The notes under the pieces are model-generated. The model had not been told where the DNA came from and searched no databases. It saw only the letters and a program-made list of their open reading frames with translations. DNA of 64,000 bases from Negaprion brevirostris. Taxonomy: Eukaryota. Numbering within the stretch: position 1 is the first letter of the stretch; each line of letters opens with the position of its first letter. Below are positions 32,359 to 46,173 of this stretch, one piece after another. Location of the stretch: NCBI GenBank assembly GCA_030324005.1, contig JARDVH010000099.1, positions 21,728,265 through 21,792,264 of the forward strand. The letters run 5' to 3'. The translations under genes and the position numbers were made by a program.

Positions 32359-32949
32359 GGGGACACAATTCTCCCAGCCTACAGCTGTGTCGCGGGCTTC
32401 CCACTGGGAATCATGGCCTCTGCGCTTCTCTGGCTGCTGGATTTCCAGCATCATCAATCCCGTGCCAGAAATTGGTGTAGAGCTGATTAAAATATTTAAA
32501 TTCTAATTGATTCTGATTAGCGGGCCTGGTCTGAGGGGCGGTGGGTGCGGACAGGAACAGACCCGGACATGATCGGCAGGCCAGCAATCAGGACACGGTG
32601 GAGGGGTGGGGTATGAGAAGGGCAGCATTCTGGATTGCTGTGCCGGTCAGCGATTGAGCTGACCAGTGATCTGGAGGCCGGCAGTATGGGGCTACTGCAC
32701 ATGCACAGATCTGCTCTATGACAGATCACTGCATACGCAGTGGCCCACTCAGCGCTATGCTACGACCTCTCCAGTAGAAATAGCCTCCCCACCCCTCTAC
32801 CCCCGATTTTTGATGAGATTCACACTAAGGCTCCCTAGTGCACAGTATGTGGGAGATTCACCTTGAAAATCCCACTCAAAAAAAATGCAGGATTTACTCC
32901 AGTTCTCACACGAATTCGGCACTTAGAAATATTTTGGGAGAATTCACCC
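32359..32949. mobile_element. ~590-bp MITE with TIRs (Harbinger-like)
   Basis: 5' GGGACACAATTCTCCCA and 3' TGGGAGAATTCACCC. GC/CpG-rich interior with no recognisable ORF. Confidence 0.7.
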
Positions 32950-32959
32950 ATGGTCTGCA

Positions 32960-34495
32960 TATCAAGAAAGAAAAGTAATATTTTTTCCCGAAGTCAGTCT
33001 AGTATTTGGGTCCCATTATTCATAGTAAAGGCCTACATAAAACACCAAACAAAATGGAATCTACTTTAGAAGCACCACATCCGATAAACGTGACACAATT
33101 GAGGTCTTCCTTAGGATTAGTAAATTATTATGGCAACTTTTTTCCTAACCTAGTGACATTGTGGAAGCCATTACATAATTTACTATGTGTGAAACAGTCA
33201 TGGGACTGGACAACAGACTGAGAGAGTGCAAGCAAGAATGTCAAACATGCTTTGCAGAAGTTTGAAGTATTGGTTCATTTTAATTTGTAGCTACCATTAC
33301 TGGTTGCTTGTGATGCTTCACCTTATGGCATAAGGGCAGTAGTTTCGCATTTGTGTTTGGGAGAACAACAAATAGATTTTGGTTTGCATTCTCTGACTAG
33401 TGCTAAATCTAACTATGCTCAGCTGGAAAAAGCAGCATTGAGTACAATTTTTGACACACAACCCAAGGTGGATGTCTATTGTGGAGAATCTGAGTGATCA
33501 TTCCTCTGAGTCTGCGTGGAAGAGACCTTGAACAACTACATGAAGGGTATCCTAATATAGTCCAGATGGGAGAATTAACATGTAGTTACTTTTGATGATC
33601 AGTTCTTTAAGCTCAGATTGAAGAAAAAGAGGGACAATGTCAATCCTGTGCACGAATAAGAAACATGCTACCACTATCTCTTTTACACTCTTGGGAGTGC
33701 CCTAAAATGCCATGGCAAAGATTACATGTAGATTTTGCTGGTCTGTTTGAGGGTTACATGTTCTTTGTCACAATTGATGTGCATTCAAAATTGCCAGAAG
33801 TTCTTATCATGAGATCTACTACAATTGAACAAGCCATTGAGAAAATTGACAACATTTTTACAAGGTTTGGTAAACCAGAACATATAGTGAGCAACAACTA
33901 TTCACAGTTTAATTCACTAGCGTTTAACGATTATTTCAAAGTAAATGGCATTCAGCATATAAAATCTGTTTACCAATGGATTAGCTGAATGGTTCGTACA
34001 ATCCTTGAAATATTCTTTAAGAGTTTCAGGACAGCAAGGTTCACTAACACATTGCATAAATAGCTTTTTGGCATCTTATAGAAACACTACTCATGCAACT
34101 ACCCGAAGTTCACCTGCATTACTTTTTTTAAAGAGAAAGTTGAGAATACATTTGATTTGCTATTAACTCCAGAAACTTCATTGTTAGTAAAGCGCCAACA
34201 GCAAGTTGCTAGACGAGATGCGAGGGCAAAACATGTTTATTTCAACTAGGAGATGCAGGTTAGCACATAATTATGTCACGAGTGAGCCATAGCTTTAGCA
34301 AAAACAGGTCCAATTTTTTACATGGTTCAAACTGGAGATGAACTAGTTTGGTGATGCCATGCTGACCAATTGTCATCATCTCAAAATGATTTCTCAAAAT
34401 CATCTCCAGAAGTACAAATATCTTTACTCCCAAGTGAATACTACTATGGAAGATTTAGTTGAATCTGAGTTGCCTGATGATTGTGCCTATGCTAC
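32960..34495 (+). mobile_element. pol: Gypsy/Ty3 (Mag-like) LTR retrotransposon pol, 5'-truncated pseudogene (RT end, RNase H, integrase)
   Basis: LEAPHPINVTQLRSSLGLVNYYGNFFPNL; LVACDASPYGIRAV; NYAQLEKAAL; PWQRLHVDFAGLFEGYMFFVTIDVHSKLPEV...FGKPEHIVSNN..QF...NGIQHIKS. Confidence 0.92.
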
Positions 34496-34953
34496 TGAGA
34501 AAGTAGAATATAAATAAAAGACTAACTTAGAAAATGTGGGATAGCATGGCTTGACAGAGGTTAGAGAGGATAGCATGACTCAAATAAAATGAAGGCATAC
34601 AAAGAATGGAATGCTCTAGGGGAAATAAAAGCCACAGCCACATAAGTAATTTAGTTTTGGGTATAATTGTATTCAGGTAAAGACCTATTGGGTAAACAAG
34701 GTAGGAAATCCATTGTATTGAGGAATGTGATTATATTGGTACAGAATTGAATATACTCATCTGATTAGATCTGTATAAAAGATAGCTGATGTGATTAGAT
34801 CTATACAGACTTAAATATACTCATATAATCTATATAAAAGACAGCTGTAACAGGACACCTTTGAGTAAATCCTTCTGATCTTTTGCGCTTACAATGGCTA
34901 TATTGTGTGGATTTGCCATGATGTAGATTGTCCTTTAAAGCTTTTCTTTAACA
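34496..34953 (+). repeat. ERV 5' LTR
   Basis: TG...CA ends and colinear with 45199-45697 (about 13 mismatches in the first ~125 nt by eye). TATA-like TATATAAAAG at ~34831. Confidence 0.92.
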
Positions 34954-34958
34954 GTTTG

Positions 34959-34977
34959 TGGTGCCATGACTCAGGAT
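34959..34977 (+). promoter_or_regulatory. Primer-binding site complementary to tRNA-His
   Basis: TGGTGCCATGACTCAGGAT versus the canonical TGGTGCCGTGACTCGGAT (1 substitution, 1 insertion), 5 nt after the 5' LTR. Confidence 0.85.
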
Positions 34978-35223: not shown

Positions 35224-36492
35224 ATGAGAAGGAAATCCTCAAAGGATATTCTGGTTCCCCTGCAAAAACCCCTGACATATTTTATGCATCATTATTATAG
35301 GAAAGGAACTCGCAAGTGGTTAGATCAATGGAACTGGGGAACAAGAGAAGACCCTAAGTTGCAGTGCTCCTTGACGGGATCCTTTGATCTAGACAAAATA
35401 GTGTATTTAAGAGGATATTTGTATACAAGAAAAGGAAGGATCAAATAGCTTCAGTGGGAGGCTTTCTTTGTTTGGTAAGAAGAATCTTCAAAAAGACAGG
35501 TCCTGTCAAATATTTCTGGAGTCCAAAATATGCATGCAAAACTAAAAAAGTGCAGGAATTAGACTAAAAGGCTGAGACTCTTAGAAGCTCCTCTCTACCG
35601 CTTACTTCATCCCTATATTCACAAAATGAAAAGGAACCTGCAGGTCCAGAACAAGAGCTGTCTGAGGATTCATAAGAACATAAGAACATAAGAAATAGGA
35701 GCAGGAGTAGGCCATCCAGCCCTTCGAGCCTGCCCCGCCATTCNNNNNNNNNNNNNNNNNNNNNNNNNNNNNNNNNNNNNNNNNNNNNNNNNNNNNNNNN
35801 NNNNNNNNNNNNNNNNNNNNNNNNNNNNNNNNNNNNNNNNNNNAAGGCATCCACTATCACCTCCGCCATTTCTTTCAGAACCCTCGGATGCATTCCATCC
35901 GGTCCTGGGGACTTGTCCACCATTCACTCGAATGGCCCATGCCCCCGCTCCCTACCATAATGAGAGAACCCCTATCCCTAATGTCTCAACAGCTGAGACC
36001 ATTATTAGTAGTATAGGCTCCCTTGACTGCCCCCGAGATAAGAACAAAGGGACACTTATATCCCTTAAGTTACTGTCAAGAAGTAGATTACAGAGGAAAA
36101 ACCTGTGCCCCTCAAGAGAATTACCTGCTGCAGGAGATTCGGACCAATTGGTGACTGGATATGCCCCATGGATCCCCCAGGAGATCTAATGACCATGACC
36201 AAGAGTTTCCCTAATATTAGGGAACAACCAGAAGGTTTAGTCTGGAAACTCTGGACTACACAAAAATGCTATCACACCAGTCGGGCTGTTATTAAACAAC
36301 CCTTGGGAGTAATAGTACCAAAAAAAATTTAAAAAGACTCCACGAAGTCACTGACTGGCTGTTAGTTGAACTCAGAGAATAGAAGACCAAATAGGTCAAT
36401 TGCTTCATGCAGTTATGCAGATCTGCTCTACTAAAACTTACTGGACCGAAATAAACAATATTAAATTAGAAAGAGGAGAAAGCCCAGCTGAT
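35224..36492 (+). pseudogene. gag: ERV gag, decayed and 3'-truncated
   Basis: MRRKSSK (decayed MGxxSSK) and WNW...TGSFDLDKI..L matrix-like motif. Capsid remnants YAPWIP and YWTEINNIKLERGESPAD (start of the major homology region). Confidence 0.7.
35672..35930 (-). mobile_element. CR1 insertion inside gag (collapsed across a gap)
   Basis: (CATAAGAA)n tail at 35671-35695 and DKSPGPDGMHPRVLKEMAEVIVDA after the gap. Confidence 0.9.
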
Positions 36493-39065
36493 TCCCTCTT
36501 TCCCTGTGGTACCAAACCCTGCCAACATTTTAGCTCTTGTCCCAGCAAGCTCAAATGGTTTACAGTAGTTGATCTATGTTCAGCACTTTTTTAGCATACT
36601 TGTATAGCAACAAGGTAATATATATTTGCTTTTACATATAAAGGCCAACAATATACTTGGATCAGATTCCCCCAAGGATATATTGAATCCCCATCCTTCT
36701 TCTCACAAGCTTTGAAAAAGGACCTTGAAGAATTCAAGTTCCCTACAAACTCCACCCTTATCCAGCATGTAGATGACCTACTTTCAGCATCATATACAAA
36801 GGAAGCAAATTTAAAGGATGCATTGTACCTCCTCTCTAAATTAGCCCAGAAAGGACATAAGGTACCCAAGAGAAAATTGCAATGGTGCACTCAAAGTATA
36901 GTATCCAGGACACGAATTGTCCCATGTCTACGATACTTAACTGAGCCATGAACCAAATCTGTACAATGCATTCCCAAGCCTACTACATTAAACAATTGCG
37001 GTCCCTATTAGGGATGACAGGGTATTATAGACAGTGGATAATTGATATGCTCAGTTGATCCAACCCTCGCAGGATTTTATGGCCACATCCACTGCAGAAC
37101 CCTTGCAGTGGTCCCCTGAAATGGAACAAGCCTTTACAGCACCAAAACAGGCATTGTTATCGGCACCTGCTTTCAGTCTACCTAATTATGAAATGCCATT
37201 TGTCCTATACTGTCATGAGATTAATGGATATGCCCAAGCTGTATTCGTATAAGATCACGGAGGAACACAATGCCCATTAGCTTATTACAGCACTAGATTA
37301 GATCCAGTGGCAAAAGGACTACCAGGATGTTTAAAGACTGTAGCAACAGCATTAGTGGTGGAATCCACCTCTAATTTAGACCTTGGGAGCCCCCTTATTC
37401 AATGGGTTCCCTGTGTCGTCCACACTCTCCTCACCAAAACAAGACACAGCACTTCTCGAATGCTCGCCTTACGAGATATGAATTGATCCTTTAGTTGCAG
37501 AAAATATTACCATCCAGCAATGTGCTCTCTTGAACCCAACTTGATTGTTATCCATTGTCTTAAACAGAGAACCACATGATTGTTCTCAGGTCACTATGTA
37601 TTCTATGAAACCTAGAATTGACCTACAAGAGACACCTGTCCCCAATGTGAATAGCAACATTTTTGTGGATGGGTCAGCCTTCCTTTCTGACTAAGGGAGA
37701 ATGCAGGTGGACTATGCAGTATGTAAAGGATTTGAGCAAAGCTCCGTACTATCCCAATATTCAGCACAAATGGCTGAGTTACTTGCCCTAACTGGGGCAT
37801 GCACCCTCATGGAGGGATAATCTGTTAATATTTTACTGACTCCTGTTAGGCATTTGGAGTAGCTCATGATTATAGTACTCTGTGGAAATTGAGGGGCTAT
37901 TTAACCTTTGCAGGAATTCCTATTAAGAACGGTCCCATGGTCAAAGCCCTGTTAAATACCATACAACTATGCCCTCAGACTGCGATTATAAAATATCAGG
38001 CTCACACGTTCAGGTTCTGCGTCATTAACTCCCCCACTATCCTTGTGCCCCGTTATAACCTCAGCACCTGTTAGTGAGCCTCTAATAGAATTTATAAGCA
38101 TTAGCCCTAGTGCAAAATTCAGCTCCAAAAACTGAGCAGGCTAAATGGAAAACAGCTGGTTGCACTCCAGACTCAAACTATCTGGTGTGTCTCTAATGCT
38201 CATCTTTCAGTGCCCCCGCAACAACTTTCATATTTGGCAAATATTACTTACGGTGTTACCCATGTGAGCAAAGGAGAGATGACAGACATCATTAAGAAAT
38301 ATTGGTACGTGCCTGGATTTGCAGCAATAGCTACAAAATATTGCACAGGATGCACATGTCAAAAATTTAATGTTGGGAAAGCAACAAAGACCACACATGC
38401 ACTGTTACCACAGGCTAAAGGTCCATTTGTGAATATACAAGCTGATTTTGTACAATTGTCAAAAGTAAATGGATATGAATATATACCCATAACAGTAGAT
38501 ACATCCTCAAGATGAATAAAAGCTTTTGCAACCTGAAAAGTGGACATGCTAACAATTGCTAAAATTTTAATATAACAAGTTATCTGTAGATATGGACTTC
38601 CACAATATGTAAATAGTGACAGAGGAACACATTTTACAGGAAATGTAGTAAAGGAATTGTGTAAAGCATTGGACATCAAACAGAAACTGCACTGTCCGTA
38701 CCATCCACAATCAATCATCGAGAATTGTGGAAAGGTAAAACGGCACATTGAAGACCAAACTTGCAAAACTATGGAATGAGACAGGAATGAAACGGCCAGA
38801 TACATTACCTCTGGTACTAATGAGTATGAGAATGACAACTCACAAAAATATAGGTCTAAGCCCATGTAAAATCCTAATGGGAAGACCTATGAGCAGTAGA
38901 ATAAACCCTAACTGGAACTAACAATCAGTTAGTCTACACAAAGTAAGTAATGAATAGGTACAATACTGTCTTAAGCTAATGAAAAATTTGAGATCCATTC
39001 ACACACAGATTAAAGAAGATCAACCCCTGTCGCCAAATAAAACCAGGACACTGGGTCCTGTCAAA
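36493..39065 (+). pseudogene. pol: ERV pol (RT, tether, RNase H, integrase), frameshifted; protease missing
   Basis: FPVVPNPANIL; KWFTVVDLCSA; FAFTYKGQQYTWIRFPQGYIESPSFFSQAL; LIQHVDDLL; AYYSTRLDPVAKGLPGCL; FVDGS, SAQMAELLALTGAC, IFTDS; YGVTHVSK..C..C; QADFVQL; RYGLPQYVNSDRGTHFTG; HCPYHPQS. Confidence 0.95.
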
Positions 39066-39100
39066 GGTCTTCAAGGACAGGACTCCCAACTTGTACACTT

Positions 39101-40100
39101 GTAATTGTGTCACTTAATGTTTTAAATGTTATTATTGTAAAATATGACCAAGCTTGTTTACCCAAATGGTGTAACATCAGTAAGATCCAAATGAAACTGG
39201 AAAAGATAAAAAAACAGAAGTGAGTTGGGAATCATTCTGGGAGGAGTAGAGACAGGAATAGGAGCTATTAATGCAATGGATTTGGAAACCACACAAAACA
39301 AATACAAAAGGTGGGATCATTGATAGGAGAAGGATATAGGACGGGATCAAAACTGTCATAAGTAAGTACACCTTAAAAATTGGTACTCAGATAAGATGCA
39401 GTGGAAACAAACAAAGGGAGTGAGCGAAGAGCAGGAAAAGGTTAATGAAAATTCTAATCAAGAACAGAACAACACATTCTGTTGGAGAAAATAAATTGTA
39501 CACAAATTCTTAAGAGCAAAACTAGAAAGATCTGCCTATACTGGCCGAGGATAGGGTGCTTTAACTTTACCAATCCTCAATTGCAAATTGAGCCAGATTT
39601 AAAATACATGAGATGGGATACCTCAGGATGTAATTTTACTATGCAAGTTGTGAATGTTACAAAAGCTCACACATGGTATGCATTCATAATTCTACTTCAC
39701 TTGTTTGGAGTCCTGAGTTTAAAGGAAACTGGATTGATGAGAAAAATAATACTCACAGGGGAAAAGACTGTGTGAAATGGTCTAATTGTATGCTGTGGCC
39801 TGTACATTCTCCTGTATATGAACCATGTAGTTTTAATCACTCTGTAGGAAATTGTTTGTGGACTAGGGTAATATAGGGTATATTAACTCCAGGCCACTGT
39901 TTGTGGTATTGGACAAAATAAGAACAACAAAGAACAATACAGCACGGGAAACAGGCCCTTCGGCCCAACAAGCCCGCACCGCCATTTTAACACCTTTCCT
40001 CTTCCACCCTTGAGCCATGTCTATGCTTATGGCACCCACATTGGAAACCAGATTGAGGGGAGAATAATTTAGGGACAATTTGTTACACCAATCAGCCTAA
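39101..40100 (+). pseudogene. env: ERV env, N-terminal part (basic cleavage site, fusion peptide, Cys-rich ectodomain)
   Basis: VIVSLNVLNVIIVKYDQACLPKWCNISKIQMKLEKIKKQK*, then after a frameshift ELGIILGGVETGIGAINAMDLETTQNK. Later GCNFTMQVVNVT and CVKWSNCMLWP..YEPCSFNHSVGNCLW. A CR1 tail is inserted at ~39920-39985. Confidence 0.7.
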
Positions 40101-40699
40101 GNNNNNNNNNNNNNNNNNNNNNNNNNNNNNNNNNNNNNNNNNNNNNNNNNNNNNNNNNNNNNNNNNNNNNNNNNNNNNNNNNNNNNNNNNNNNNNNNNNN
40201 NTGGTTTACGAAATAGTGTTACTCTTTCAGACAGTCGGTGCAGACATGATAGGCTGAATGGCCTCCTTCTGCACTGTAGGGATCCTATGTGCTGCTTTTC
40301 TCCAATACTGTGAAAATGGGAATAGAACCACATTGCTGCACAGTTTTGGAAGGAGTGGGGTGTCAGTACCTCAAAAAATATAGCCATGTTGAATCACAGC
40401 ACAATTGTGGTACTGATTGACCCAGTTCGCAAACTGTATCTTCTCTCAATTGATTGGGCTGGAAACCCAAATGGAAAATATGGCTCTGATCGTAAGAATA
40501 TAGAAGGGACGTCTGATTGAGAATTCTAAAATTCTAGAAGGGTTTGATAGGGTCATGCTTAGAGAACATGACTGGAATTCTACTGCCTTGCCCATCACGA
40601 AATCGTTGTGGGTGGCGGGCGTACAATGGAAATGTCCGTTGACCTCAGGCGGGATTTGTCAGTCTCACTAAACAAGGCAGTAAAATCCCATCCAATATT

Positions 40700-41010
40700 T
40701 CCACTTTAGATAAGGCAAGCAGTTGGAAGCTTCTTCCCAGGGCAGAAATGGCAATCACAAGGGGGCCCAAGTTCAAGGTAAAGGGGGAAAGGTTCAGTGG
40801 AGTTGTGCAGGGGAAGGTTTTTACACAGAGGGTGTTGGTGACCTGGAATGCACTGCCAAGTGAGATGGTTGAGGCAGGTACGTTAGCCACATTTAAGACT
40901 GATCTGGATAGGCACATGAACAGGCAGGGTATAGAGGGATACAGGCAGTTGGCCTAAATAGGACAACATGATCGGTGCAGGCTTGGTAGGCCATACAGCC
41001 TGTTCCTGAG
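40700..41010 (+). mobile_element. CR1 3' end
   Basis: TRGPKFKVKGERF...VFTQRVLVTWNALPSEMVEAGTLATFKTDLDRHM. Confidence 0.88.
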
Positions 41011-43036
41011 GGCAAATCAAAACCAGGAGCCATCAGCATTAAGGTAGTTACTAATAAACGCAATTTTTAGGAGAAACCGCTTCATCAAACTCACTACCAC
41101 AAGGAGTTGCGGGGATGAATATTATAAGTGCATTGAAGGATAAAATTGATAAGTAAATGAGGGGGACAGATATAGCAGCATATACTGATAGGGCATAATA
41201 AGACTCAAGAGGAAGAGGTTTGAGTGGAGCATGAACACCAGCAAGAACTAATTGGGCTGAATGACGGAGTCCTGTGTTGTGAATTCTATGCAAGAAAACT
41301 TTCATCCATCCATGGGATGTATCAAGGAATGTCATCAAAGGTATTTACTCATGGCATGCAGGCACTGCTGGCAAGGTCAAATTTATTGCCCTGAGAAGGT
41401 GGCAGTGAGTTGCCTCCTGGACCCACTGCAGCTCATCTCTTATCACTGTACGTACACTCACAATGCTGTTAGGAAGGGATTTAGAGCCAACAATGATAAA
41501 GAAATGGCAACATATTTCCATGCCAGTACAGTGCGTGTCACGGAGGAGAATTCTGGTGAGGAACCATCACTCTCTTTGGCATTCGTAAATGGGTATTGGT
41601 TGGAGAGTGAGTTGTACTCATGGGGTCCCTGCCTCAATTTGATCGGCAGTTACCTATCCCCACTCTGCCTGCACTCTCTAAATTTGTGGCGTAACCACCT
41701 CAAGATGTATGCGACCAGTGTAGTTTTAATTAAGCACAGCTCTATGTAACCTGTGTTGTAGTTTGTAACACAGAAAATTCACTGCTTAGTATTTTCCCAC
41801 GCCAATTTTCTTTCCCTTGTCGTTGGAGGCTTCCTGTTGGGATAAAGTTTCACAGAAACCAGGTGTTCTCCAGTAACTTTCACTTCTATTCCTCTCTCAT
41901 TTACAGACATGTGAAACAGACAAAGTAATGTGCTTATGTCTGTTTCCATCGCTGTTTTTTTCCTGGAACAGGTCGCTAGCTTATCTTCAGAGATTATAGC
42001 TTGAGGAGTAACCTAACTGACTAGGAAACTGTCCTGCTCACCATCTTTTACCACCATCAGGTGAATCAGAAGGCATCTTGCAAGTTGCTAATCGACCTGT
42101 TAAGCAGCATTATGAATATGCTTTCCTTGACAATCGCATCCTAGAGTGAGACTTGAACCTGGAGTTTTCTGGCTCAAAAGCAGGGACACTATTATTGTGC
42201 CACAGGGTCTCCAATCTCTTTAACAAGTGGCTAATATTCATTCATCTCTGCATGCATATAAAGTCCATTAGGTAGATTATGAGCTTGTGTGATAGTGCAG
42301 ATGACAGTGAGCCAACATTTTGCACCTTGCTATTTTTATTTTTACTCAATGATTGGGAGAGGTATTTGACATTGCCCCATAAAGCGTCCAGGAATACATT
42401 CTTTAATCTGATATCTGCAAACTTTCACTTCAATGTTAGTAAAATCTGTCCTGCTTTGGAATGTGATTCCTTTCCCATTGTTTTCAAGGAGAGATTAGCA
42501 TTCACATTGTAAGAGTTTTGTTGGAGATTTGCATTATGAGCTGATATCCGCAATGAACTGGGCTGACGTTGTCCAAATCCAAATTACAAGGGGCCCTGTT
42601 CCAGCTACCAGCAGAACTAGACATGCATTCCATTGGTCTAGACTGGATTTGAACTCAGAACCAAGTGGTTAAAAGACAATTTTCTAACTGTGGTGTCATC
42701 TGGATCCCACAGTCAGATATCTCAATCACTGGAAGCTAACTGTCCATCCCTAATTGACCCTGAACTGAGTGGCTTACTAGACTATTTTAGAGGGCTGTTA
42801 AGAGTCCACCACATTGCTGTGGTTTTGGAATCACATGTAAGCCAGGCCAGGTAAGGACAGCAGATTTCCTTCCCTAAAGGACATTAGTGAACCAGATGGG
42901 TTTATACAGCAATGGATAATGATAACTCCATGCGCCCACTACTACAGTAAGATTACCACTCACTTTTTACTCTTCCACACTGGAGATCTGCATTTCTGCC
43001 CAAGTCCTCCAATCCCAGAAAAACAGAGCAAACCTT

Positions 43037-43360
43037 CATAGAATCATAGAAAACCTACAGTTCAGAAGGAGTCCACTTGGCCCATTGAGCCGGCACCAAC
43101 GCCAATCCCACCCAGGCCCTCTCTTCATAATCCTACCCGACTAATTCCCCATGACACTAAGGGGCAATTTTGCCATGGCCAATCCATCTAATCTGCACAT
43201 CTTTGGAGTATAGGAGGAAACCAGAGCACCCAGAGGAAACCCACATGGACACTAGAAAAACGTGCAAACTCCACACAGACAGCGACCCGAGGCCGGAATC
43301 GAACCCGTGTCCTCGCACTGTGAGGCAGCAGTACTAACCACTTTGCCACCATGCTGCCCC
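43037..43360 (-). mobile_element. HE1-like tRNA-derived SINE
   Basis: Close to 2069-2382, with a good B-box (GGGTTCGATTCC on the minus strand). Confidence 0.88.
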
Positions 43361-43575
43361 CACAACCTAACTTCCATCCTGATGACGATGGATCATTAAG
43401 GGGAGGCACGTCATACCTCCTTTTCACAGCACTGTATTCTGTTAAGTCTTCACTCACACACTGAAAAACTGGGACATTTAAAAATTTGAACCCACGTCCT
43501 ACCACGTTATCTCAGGTCTCTGGAGTACGAGTCCAATCACATTGCCATTGCACCGCCATCTCCCCCAGATATAGT

Positions 43576-43889
43576 TTAAATAAAACTTATTTATTAGTGT
43601 TACAAGAAGGCTTATATTAACACTTCAATGTAGTTACTGTGAAAATCCCCTAGTCACCACACTTCCAGTGCCTGTTCAAGTACACTGAGGGAGAATTTAG
43701 CATGGCAAATGCACCTAACCAGCACGTCTTTTGGACTGTGAGAGGAAACTGGAGTACCCAGGGCAAACCCAGACAGACATGTGGGAGAACATGCAAACTC
43801 CACACAGACAGTTAGCCAAGTCGGGAACCAAACCTGAATCCCTGGCGCTGTGAGGCAGCAGTGCTAGTCACTGTGCCACTGTGCTGCCC
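43576..43889 (-). mobile_element. HE1-like SINE, alternative-tail subfamily
   Basis: Same head and core, with a tail ending CACTAATAAATAAG. Matches 58454-58738. Confidence 0.85.
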
Positions 43890-44629
43890 AGAGGGTTATA
43901 GATAGGATCTGAAAACACAAGAGGCAGCCATTTGACCCATCGTGGCTGTGGTGGCTCTTGGCAGGATTCAGTCCCCCTGGTCTGCTCTTTTCCCTGGGAC
44001 CTGACAATCTTCTCTGCCTCATGAATTTAAACAGGTGGGAAAGAATAGATCCGCGTCACTGAACTTGTTTAAGAGAATTAACTGCCACGACGTGAATACA
44101 CGACCGGACGACTAACTCTAACGCTGACCTTAACCTTAACTATGACCCTGAACATAATCACTGCAGAGTTTATTAAGATGTACACAGCAGTCAATAGGAG
44201 ATGGCCAGGAAATTGTTATTAAAAAACTGGGACATCTAATTTCACAGCTTCGATGGGAACTTGTGGCGTGAGTCAACTGTGCAAGTTTTCCCTGGGAGAC
44301 AATTTCCTGGAGATCTTGATGAACAATACTTCACGCAACTCCAAACGTATTTTGTGAAACCTGTAGTGGATATACAATTATCCTTTAAAAGAATCTTGCA
44401 GACAAGAAATAAATCATCATGTAGACCACCATCTGTAACATTTTCTTTCTGGGGGTCACAGGTTAATGTGGCGTAAGCTGACACGTTTGACTAAAATAAC
44501 AGCCTTATTCTTTAAGCCGCTGATAATAAAACTCCTTTGGCCATGACAGCAGCTTGACTGTATCCTGTATTTATGGAAATCAGATGTGATTTAAACTCAG
44601 AGCATTACAATAAGTTCCCTCTTGACTCC

Positions 44630-45080
44630 GGCACAGAGTGAAATTCTGTGAAATCGTGTTATATAGAATAGATTGGGATGGGACAAAGAAGCCTTTTATG
44701 ATCAAGCTTGCCAGCTTGTTGGGTGGAGGAATGTCGAGCTCTATCACCAAGTGGCTCAGATTGAAATGTTACCACTGATGATTAACCTAGAAAGACTGCA
44801 GACATTTCTCAAGAACAATGCAAAGATCAATGAAGCCTTGCAACAATGAGGAAAACAATTAAGTAAAGCCAGAGCTATAATCATCTACCCAGAAAATGAA
44901 TTTGTACACTTGTCTGACCAAATACCCTCGCTGACGGTGCATCAATGGTGGGGCATTTTTAAGGAATGGTCCCCAAAGGCCTCCGCTGTATTATCCTTGC
45001 TTGTACATCTTATTACTATAATAATAATAATAACTGGATTATTGCCAACTTTTATCTTAACTTCATGGTGTATGGTATAA
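44630..45080 (+). pseudogene. env: ERV env, C-terminal part (heptad region, membrane-proximal WW, TM anchor)
   Basis: One frame reads VELYHQVAQIEMLPLMINLERLQTFLKNNAKINEALQQ*GKQLSKARAIIIYPENEFVHLSDQIPSLTVHQWWGIFKEWSPKASAVLSLLVHLITIIIIITGLLPTFILTSWCMV*, directly upstream of the PPT and 3' LTR. Confidence 0.8.
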
Positions 45081-45186
45081 AGTTCAATGCCTCGTAAACT
45101 CAGTAATGACATTAAGTAGTATTTTTAGGGCTAGAGCAAGAATGCTATTAAGGGACTAAACAAGTAAAGTTGTGCTTTTAATACAC

Positions 45187-45197
45187 AAAAGGAGGGA
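45187..45197 (+). promoter_or_regulatory. ERV polypurine tract
   Basis: AAAAGGAGGGA immediately before the 3' LTR. Confidence 0.8.
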
Positions 45198-45198
45198 C

Positions 45199-45697
45199 CA
45201 AGAAAGTATAATATAAATAAAGGGCAAACTCAGAAAATATGGGTTGGCATGTCTTGACAGAGGTTAGAGAGGAGAGCATGACTCAAATAAAATGAATGCA
45301 TACAAAGAATGGAATGCTCTAGGAAAAAAAAGCTACAACTACATTAATAATTTAATTATGGGTGTAATTGTATTCTGGTAAAGACCTATTGAATAAACAA
45401 GGTAGGAAATCCATTGTATTGTGGAATGTGATTAGTTAAACCTGCATTGAATTGAATATATTTGTCTAATTAGATCTATATAAAAGACAGTTGATGTGAT
45501 TAGATCTGTACAGGCTTGAATATATTCCGTTTAAAAAAATGGCTGTAACAGGACGACTTTGAACAGGATCTACTTAAAGTTGTCCTGAGTAGATCCTTCT
45601 GATCACTCCCAATGGCCATTGTAAGCACAAAGTAAAATAATATTAGATTATGTAGATTTGCCATGGTGTAGGTTGTCCTTTAAAATTTTTTAAAACA
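45199..45697 (+). repeat. ERV 3' LTR
   Basis: Colinear with 34496-34953. Ends ...TTTAAAACA followed by CTAT. Confidence 0.92.
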
Positions 45698-46173
45698 CTA
45701 TTCTACACATGAGATTGAGACAGAATTAATTCCAAGAGAAGAAGTGTTCACTGAAGTTCCAAATCACACTTCTAGGATTAAGGACACTCAAATTCTAGAA
45801 GGTCGTAAACAAGCAAAGAGGAATAGATGACCTCCTGATCGACTTTCTTATTGATGATAAATTATGCATAGTACTGTGTCTAGAACCTGGGATCTATTAG
45901 TAATTGTAATCATTTGTTGTCACGACCACAGAAGTAAAGAGAGAGGGATGTCATATATTTAACAGGTTGTACGACTGCTTTAAGAGCTGATTAAATGTCA
46001 GAGGTGATGTCATAGGGTTTTTCAGAGGCTCCTGCTTTTAGTTTCAGTTTGTTCTTTGTACAGTAAGGGCTCCTAGAGTAAATCTGTTGTGTGTTACTTC
46101 GAATCAATGCGTGCAAACCACATCTTTTCTTTATGTTAAAACCTACAACCCCTAACATAATTAGAACATAACA
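45698..46173 (+). mobile_element. Gypsy element resumes: pol C-terminus, PPT and 3' LTR (45949-46173)
   Basis: GRKQAKRNR*PPDRLSY* is the typical R..R.R.PPxRL end of Mag-like pol. PPT AAAGAGAGAGGGA, and a 225-bp LTR TGTCAT...ATAACA. Confidence 0.8.

Follow-up and report, generated by a model that had tools for sequence, protein, structure and literature searches.

The 64,000-nucleotide stretch of Negaprion brevirostris DNA analysed here (contig JARDVH010000099.1, positions 21,728,265 to 21,792,264; hereafter the window) contains a defective class I endogenous retrovirus (ERV), a dead copy without likely function, and this provirus carries the remains of an envelope gene (env). The genes and signals of the provirus all lie on the + strand. 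The env consists of two pieces. The first opens with a remnant of the N-terminal Env subunit, comprising predicted strands equivalent to those of the F2 subunit of viral fusion (F) proteins, together with a broken furin-site region (39082–39221), and it matches a horn shark relative, P0003, from residue 207. It continues into the 5′ part of the fusion subunit (39222–39921), with a fusion peptide, heptad repeat A and a Cys-rich beta region, interrupted by several frameshifts and stops. The second piece (44693–45117) holds the 3′ part of the fusion subunit: heptad repeat B, an HxWW..F.GWSP membrane-proximal motif, a transmembrane (TM) helix and a short tail, the frame being broken at the end of the TM. 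The initial annotation of this DNA had proposed a fusion peptide with a heptad and, after a second helical region, a TM segment; we located the former from about 39222 and the latter, with its W-rich segment, at 44940–45077. When all six frames of the window were searched with a profile of the Env family described below, the env pieces matched at i-E values of 2e-11, 2e-11 and 7e-20, and everything else scored 0.4 or higher.

The two pieces are separated by later insertions and a 100-N assembly gap (39922–44692, with the gap at 40102–40201) that are absent from sibling copies; about 27% of this interval matches other repeats. The initial annotation had let the 5′ piece run from 39.1 to 40.1 kb; the piece is real, and it ends near 39921, with 39919–39983 already repeat sequence. 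A search of the same genome with the 3′ env piece returned 24 matches. In the siblings L006/L018, L008/L075 and L010/L080, the sequence matching position 39921 lies only about 100 bp from that matching 44693, which identifies 39922–44692 as a later insertion. About 100 bp of env known from siblings was not found in the window. The provirus is flanked by a target-site duplication, CTAC at 34492–34495 and CTAT at 45698–45701, and in L090, an empty-site copy of the surrounding long terminal repeat (LTR) retrotransposon, the CTAC/CTAT flanks overlap by 4 bp. With a 4-bp target duplication confirmed by an empty site, a single insertion accounts for both env pieces even though an N gap lies between them. 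The pieces had been taken for one env, with the contrary named beforehand as the refuting outcome, and the sibling spacing is that of a single gene. Two separate genes, or an assembly chimera, are ruled out by sibling collinearity and the empty site.

The window copy has lost its signal peptide and a predicted immunoglobulin (Ig)-like domain. The F-like scaffold in the model of P0003 begins at residue 197, and the window keeps the family protein from P0003 residue 207 on, which leaves it the F-like scaffold but neither the signal peptide nor the Ig-like domain. The integrase–env junction at about 39075–39082 is common to the window and 4 of the 12 sibling loci compared (L018, L075 and L076 by alignment, L080 by a continuous blast match). 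Siblings L077 and L079 retain about 80 further codons of the N-terminal subunit, and 222 and 250 residues precede the cleavage site in L064 and P0003. These extra codons and lengths rule out a naturally short N-terminal subunit. The short subunit of about 45 codons, which had been read as an F-type layout, is thus an artefact of a pol–env deletion; relatives have 220–250 aa with the predicted Ig-like domain. The suspected furin-like site does exist in the family, with R-N-K-R directly before the fusion peptide in three of eight siblings examined (L018, L077, L076), but in the window the region is broken by a frameshift and a stop, and the idea that its TGA derives from CGA is unnecessary. Downstream of the cleavage site the subunit spans about 395 codons by window coordinates and 401–464 aa in relatives reaching the TM, in agreement with the roughly 400 aa proposed. 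The tail, described earlier as almost absent, is indeed short, but it still counts about 15–20 residues in siblings L075 and L080. Neither the immunosuppressive domain (ISD) pattern nor the CX6CC pattern occurs in any + frame of either env piece, as the initial annotation had stated. Pfam searches of the window's own env frames returned nothing relevant, and the 137-aa 3′ piece matched no protein in a word-index search.

Less broken relatives are present in the same genome: L011 (a 504-codon open frame, 5′ end missing), L014, L020/L064 and L013. We searched 1.84 billion protein representatives with L011 and obtained 79 homologues at a cut-off of E ≤ 0.001. Twenty were looked up and 18 could be named: they come from sharks, a bichir, a pipefish, six frogs, two turtles, three birds, koala, marmoset and Bufonid herpesvirus 1. 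Matches outside sharks reach E 1e-36, and named homologues across vertebrates rule out a shark-specific family. Sawshark and horn shark supply the closest Env and Pol relatives, in keeping with a cartilaginous fish as host. Family members have in common the fusion peptide, a post-cleavage subunit of 401–464 aa, the HxWW..F.GWSP motif and cysteines conserved in about ten columns, and most full-length homologues have R-x-[KR]-R before the fusion peptide.

The hallmarks of gamma-type Env are missing from this family. A QNRxxLD-type ISD pattern that detects the gamma-type controls L065 and L071 is found in none of the 79 homologues, and CX6CC occurs in two, in both cases by chance at unrelated positions (P0005, 623/646; P0017, 581/751). 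TLV_coat (PF00429) matched none of the nine members tested (L011, L013, L014, P0003, P0008, P0018, P0019, P0036, P0053), and both controls passed its cut-off. Furthermore, hhalign against a gamma TM subunit from the same genome gave a probability of 0.9%. The controls are themselves long-ORF (open reading frame) class I proviruses with an ordinary gamma-type Env in this genome. Two mammalian members, P0008 of koala (several loci, 601–630 aa) and P0019 of marmoset (601 aa), are long open gene models, for which recent activity or co-option is possible. P0053, a hypothetical protein of 928 aa from Bufonid herpesvirus 1, is homologous in sequence and groups with a frog Env (98/95), which suggests an ERV env captured by a herpesvirus.

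For structure prediction we modelled two natural relatives: the L011 ORF (pLDDT 71.8, pTM 0.40) and P0003 (73.9, 0.57). With the L011 model, Foldseek returned 24 PDB chains at E ≤ 0.001, the best 19 of which are all paramyxovirus or pneumovirus F or foamy virus Env; the top match is measles F (E 8e-6). Residues 197–534 of P0003 superimpose on human parainfluenza virus 3 F with Z 7.9 and a root-mean-square deviation (rmsd) of 5.9 over 228 residues, and residues 196–564 on prefusion foamy Env with Z 6.7 and rmsd 5.0 over 235 residues. In a search of P0003 independent of Foldseek, ranks 3–11 were F or foamy Env. From residue 197 the P0003 model aligns to F2 from about residue 26, so that, by prediction, the N-terminal subunit contributes strands to the core. 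The helix-free beta region alone (404–540) matches respiratory syncytial virus F (Z 5.4, rmsd 5.1, 130 residues), and the upstream residues 52–191 match Ig-like beta-sandwiches (Z 7.3, rmsd 2.6, 89 residues). Beta-rich domains I and II with F topology are thus predicted between heptads A and B of the relatives, with middling scores. Independently of any model, the best PDB match of the family profile is a henipa-like F protein (9MNH, E 0.0014). Baculo_F was matched by 4 of 56 members (best E 0.0014), and Fusion_gly was absent among the best 25 of 45 families. A single-sequence phmmer search of PDB with L011 gave no match. No gamma- or beta-type retroviral Env was among the fold-search matches listed, an absence that excludes nothing. 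These predictions support a class Ib fold, that of paramyxovirus F and foamy Env, rather than a gamma-type one, and in this respect the F-type, non-gamma fusogen proposed at the outset is sustained.

Upstream of env, the window holds a broken class I pol (36494–39075) with partial reverse transcriptase (RT), connection, RNase H and integrase, recognised by Pfam RVT_1, RT_RNaseH_2 and rve and by tblastn with the L064 pol; its 3′ end is cut by the pol–env deletion. The window RT scores 65 bits against murine leukaemia virus (MLV), its best PDB match (E 4e-17), versus 41 against foamy virus (2e-9) and 23 against HIV-2, and the entries closest to it are class I-type Pols from fish and reptiles. 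The class I pol of the initial annotation therefore stands. In L064, where an intact pol lies beside env, the contrast is larger (MLV 468 bits, foamy 175), and this pol is clearly class I. With both pols strongly MLV-like, a lokiretrovirus-type RT from outside the canonical retroviruses was not encountered. Nor did we find spumaretrovirus features in the window RT or in the P0003 model, whose extra domain is N-terminal rather than between the F-like subunits.

The same Env family also sits on an ERV-L-like backbone in this genome. L013 (G000:C12396, 6–7232) is a nearly intact ERV-L-like element with a YIDD RT, a single pol frameshift and a 648-codon open env of the F-type family. Its pol scores 211 bits against MLV and 169 against foamy virus, and a dUTPase follows the integrase, an arrangement given for HERV-L (PMC4724089; here and below, published work is cited from accessible excerpts). 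The primer-binding sites of L014 (about 2380–2400), a class I-type gag element, and of L013 (about 78–96) are nearly the same and unlike the His site of the window. We take them to be tRNA-Ser sites.

Trees of the two proteins do not agree. In an Env tree of 32 rows, from which short fragments and near-duplicates among the 79 were left out, two window siblings group with the Envs of L011, L014, L064, sawshark and horn shark at 100/99, and a neighbouring clade unites the Env of L013 with those of frog, pipefish and mammals. In the RT tree, L064 joins at 100/100 mackerel elements whose gene models carry ISD/TLV_coat. The comparison of Env and RT trees suggested by the initial annotation thus showed incongruence: Env groups with L064 at 100/99, and grouping the window RT with the L064 RT is rejected (approximately unbiased (AU) test, p-AU 0.0007), with a short, decayed window RT. 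AU tests including L013 gave p 0.24 and 0.20, with L013 as a lone long-branch outgroup, and the integrase tree left the window without placement. Viral-contig scans with chicken P0036 and the L064 RT yielded no usable locus. The disagreement of the trees makes it likely that Env and Pol have had different histories in the window lineage. Any Env swap was most likely between retroviruses. The env swap in sharks proposed initially is supported insofar as the two histories disagree, but the family is pan-vertebrate and a shark-specific, separately acquired fusogen is not supported.

Taken together, the locus is probably best explained as a defective class I ERV whose env belongs to a vertebrate-wide non-gamma family with a predicted F/foamy (class Ib) fold, likely exchanged between backbones by recombination. 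The best reading is of an old retroviral F-type Env lineage rather than a fresh capture from an RNA virus. An intact precursor would run from a signal peptide through an Ig-like beta-sandwich and two F2-like strands to an R-x-K-R furin site, and then to a fusion subunit of 400–460 aa. In this subunit the expected order is fusion peptide, heptad A, Cys-rich beta domains, heptad B, W-rich segment, TM and short tail. The beta-sandwich would be the likely receptor-binding part. After cleavage and triggering, refolding of the F kind would join the two heptads of the presumed trimer and merge the membranes, if the predicted fold is a guide. The signal peptide and predicted Ig-like domain were lost in a deletion common to at least five copies; such deleted copies likely spread afterwards with helper proteins, and the window copy, which can no longer drive fusion, decayed later.

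A different direction of events is possible, if rather unlikely. The F-type Env could be the ancestral retroviral envelope, inherited vertically in this lineage as well as in foamy viruses, walleye viruses and class III ERVs, with the gamma type taking its place time and again in neighbouring lineages. The fold held in common with foamy Env (PMC11468914), the structural matches to the Envs of walleye epidermal hyperplasia virus 1 (WEHV1) and walleye dermal sarcoma virus (WDSV), and the occurrence of the family on both class I and class III backbones all fit such an ancestry, which is one of four open scenarios in Wang and Han (PMC7947760). However, shark class I Envs are still alignable with the Env of the class III element L013 (about 22–25% identity), whereas class I and III Pols are deeply split, and where an Env is visible in class I relatives it is mostly gamma-type (L065, L071, P0138, P0187, P0195), so that many replacements would be needed. 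An ancestral F-type Env is compatible with the fold claim and differs from recombinational exchange in direction only.

Several points weigh against the exchange of an F-type Env as we read it. The fold models come from L011 and P0003 and not from the window copy, and their pTM values are 0.40 and 0.57. No Z reaches 8, TM-scores are 0.20–0.30, and the helix-rich L011 model matches coiled coils of SMC, Rad50 and flagellar proteins as well as it matches F. The top ESM Atlas clusters carry Fusion_gly or Baculo_F (score 0.94), but the recognition value, 1748, is too low for a high score to count as strong evidence. On the phylogenetic side, the window RT, a decayed piece of 154 aa, sits on a long branch and lacks supported neighbours, so that the AU test loses force; no named WDSV, snakehead retrovirus or lokiretrovirus sequence is in any tree; and the carrier backbones covered are the window family, L064, L014 and L013, plus Ovex1 from print.

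The low Z values and TM-scores and the coiled-coil ties could be taken to mean that the resemblance to F stems only from long helices and that the family has another fold. We consider this improbable, since the beta-rich region matches F on its own, the Cys-rich beta region accounts for the profile match to an F protein, the strands of the N-terminal subunit align with F2, and two models and two aligners agree. Least probable is that a shark class I retrovirus captured an F gene straight from a negative-strand RNA virus or a lokiretrovirus: the window family's Env does form a shark-only clade, class I where backbones are known, and paramyxovirus F gives the best PDB matches, but its sequence relatives are other vertebrate ERV-type Envs (E to 1e-36 outside sharks), far closer than any F (best profile E 0.0014), it has an N-terminal module that F lacks, and the vertebrate homologue search largely refutes an RNA-virus source.

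Returning to a retroviral F-type lineage, we compared the family with known systems. The homologue P0036 is chicken LOC422926 (873 aa, E 1.1e-8) and, judged by its length and locus number, is likely Ovex1 ORF3. The 2009 description of Ovex1 gives ORF3 as 873 aa without immunosuppressive motif and CX6CC, and in the excerpts leaves its envelope identity uncertain and proposes no fold (PMC2717909). P0036 agrees with the family in its fusion peptide, its HHWW motif and the length of its subunit. Ovex1 itself is an intact element, with conservation across birds, expression in the gonads and a capsid like that of snakehead retrovirus (PMC2717909), whereas the window copy is dead and has a class I pol.

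Foamy Env is a retroviral Env with an F-like class Ib core and a long fusion subunit (PMC11468914), and it matches our models with Z 6.7–6.8. It has a leader peptide, and its receptor-binding domain is inserted between two F-like parts, whereas the extra domain here is predicted N-terminal to the F2-equivalent, the placement seen in coronavirus spike (PMC11468914). Furthermore, foamy pol is of the spuma type and the window pol is class I. Lokiretroviruses, as published, are vertebrate LTR elements whose Env resembles the PF00523 F proteins and has an RxKR site, fusion peptide, coiled coil and TM, but their RT is sister to all retroviruses, and the hosts listed in the excerpts include no cartilaginous fish (PMC7947760); the window RT is class I. 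The same excerpts report no significant overall similarity of loki Env to retroviral Env (PMC7947760).

Walleye epsilonretroviruses likewise combine a class I backbone with a non-gamma Env, which the excerpts call distinct and uncharacterised and leave without an assigned fold (PMC9967133, PMC3758190). In a viral structure library, WEHV1 Env ranks 4 and 2 for the L011 and P0003 models (E 1.4e-5 and 1.7e-7), followed by WDSV Env (E 3.1e-3 and 4.6e-4); the structures matched are BFVD Q9WHI8 and A4GTG3. Hence, the walleye Envs may be F-type themselves, and the combination of class I and F-type may already exist among exogenous epsilonretroviruses. They are much longer (1159–1317 aa), are 11–13% identical to the family, and are absent among the 18 homologues named of the 79.

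With paramyxovirus and pneumovirus F and baculovirus and errantivirus F, the family has in common the predicted domain topology, a furin-released fusion peptide and two heptads around beta domains; F proteins are non-retroviral, are about 7–18% identical to it and have no built-in N-terminal receptor-type domain. Gamma-type Env is similar in provirus position, furin cleavage and N-terminal fusion peptide and is carried by close Pol relatives, but the family lacks ISD and CX6CC and its fusion subunit is twice as long (gamma TM, about 200 aa).

F-like Envs are in print for foamy viruses, lokiretroviruses and invertebrate errantiviruses. Orthoretroviral Env is placed in class Ia, the F-like fold being reserved for foamy viruses and lokiretroviruses (PMC11468914, PMC7947760, PMC9040795), and the original env of HERV-L has been called unidentified (PMC4724089). 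A coming vertebrate study is announced in PMC13524379. In literature consisting mainly of open-access main texts, including PMC12583693, bioRxiv 2021.11.05.467493, PMC8672886, PMC11521997, PMC13709493 and PMC11905727, we found no assignment of the F fold to this ERV Env family. A vertebrate-wide F-type Env lineage on orthoretrovirus-type backbones has apparently been hitherto undescribed. We propose, tentatively and with not quite even confidence, that it represents a third major orthoretroviral envelope type, an F-like class Ib fusogen joined to an N-terminal receptor module. This type would be the native Env of ERV-L-like class III elements and walleye epsilonretroviruses, maybe ancestral to the gamma and beta types, kept by hosts (bird Ovex1 and possibly the genes of koala and marmoset) and taken up by a toad herpesvirus. 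One F-fold family on class I and ERV-L-like backbones would link the questions of walleye Env, Ovex1 ORF3 and HERV-L env, make the origin of retroviral Env testable, explain why screens based on ISD or TLV_coat miss such genes, and offer a new pool of candidate host-co-opted fusogens.

The remaining parts of the provirus are in order. A 5′ LTR with TG...CA ends (34496–34953) and a 3′ LTR (45199–45697) were delimited by comparison of the pair. They differ by a Kimura two-parameter distance of 0.165 over 442 aligned columns, which would place the insertion at about 38 million years at the mammalian rate in PMC7947760, and earlier if the host evolves more slowly. The primer-binding site (34959–34977) pairs with the 3′ end of tRNA-His apart from one mismatch and an additional base, and the host tRNA-His gene, located by pattern and ARAGORN, has a 3′ end that matches it. 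Such a site fits WDSV, which is primed by tRNA-His, a point that our literature search did not confirm. A polypurine tract lies at 45187–45197. The likely degenerate gag (35270–36493, start approximate) is placed by position and sibling alignments, and contains a repeat insertion and an N gap near 35666–35921; a Pfam search for gag gave no match and tblastn against other gags gave no significant one. About 1.2 kb of sibling L075 is missing from the window at 36493/36494.

The provirus has inserted into a high-copy LTR retrotransposon, likely of Gypsy type, within the tail of its integrase (about 32900–34495 and 45698–46160; Pfam RT_RNaseH and rve; empty sites). Positions 36493/36494 and 39075–39082 are recurrent deletion breakpoints among sibling copies. 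The gag–RT deletion at 36493/36494 is common to L076 and L017, and L077 and L079 have another jump in common, which leads from 36493 into env.

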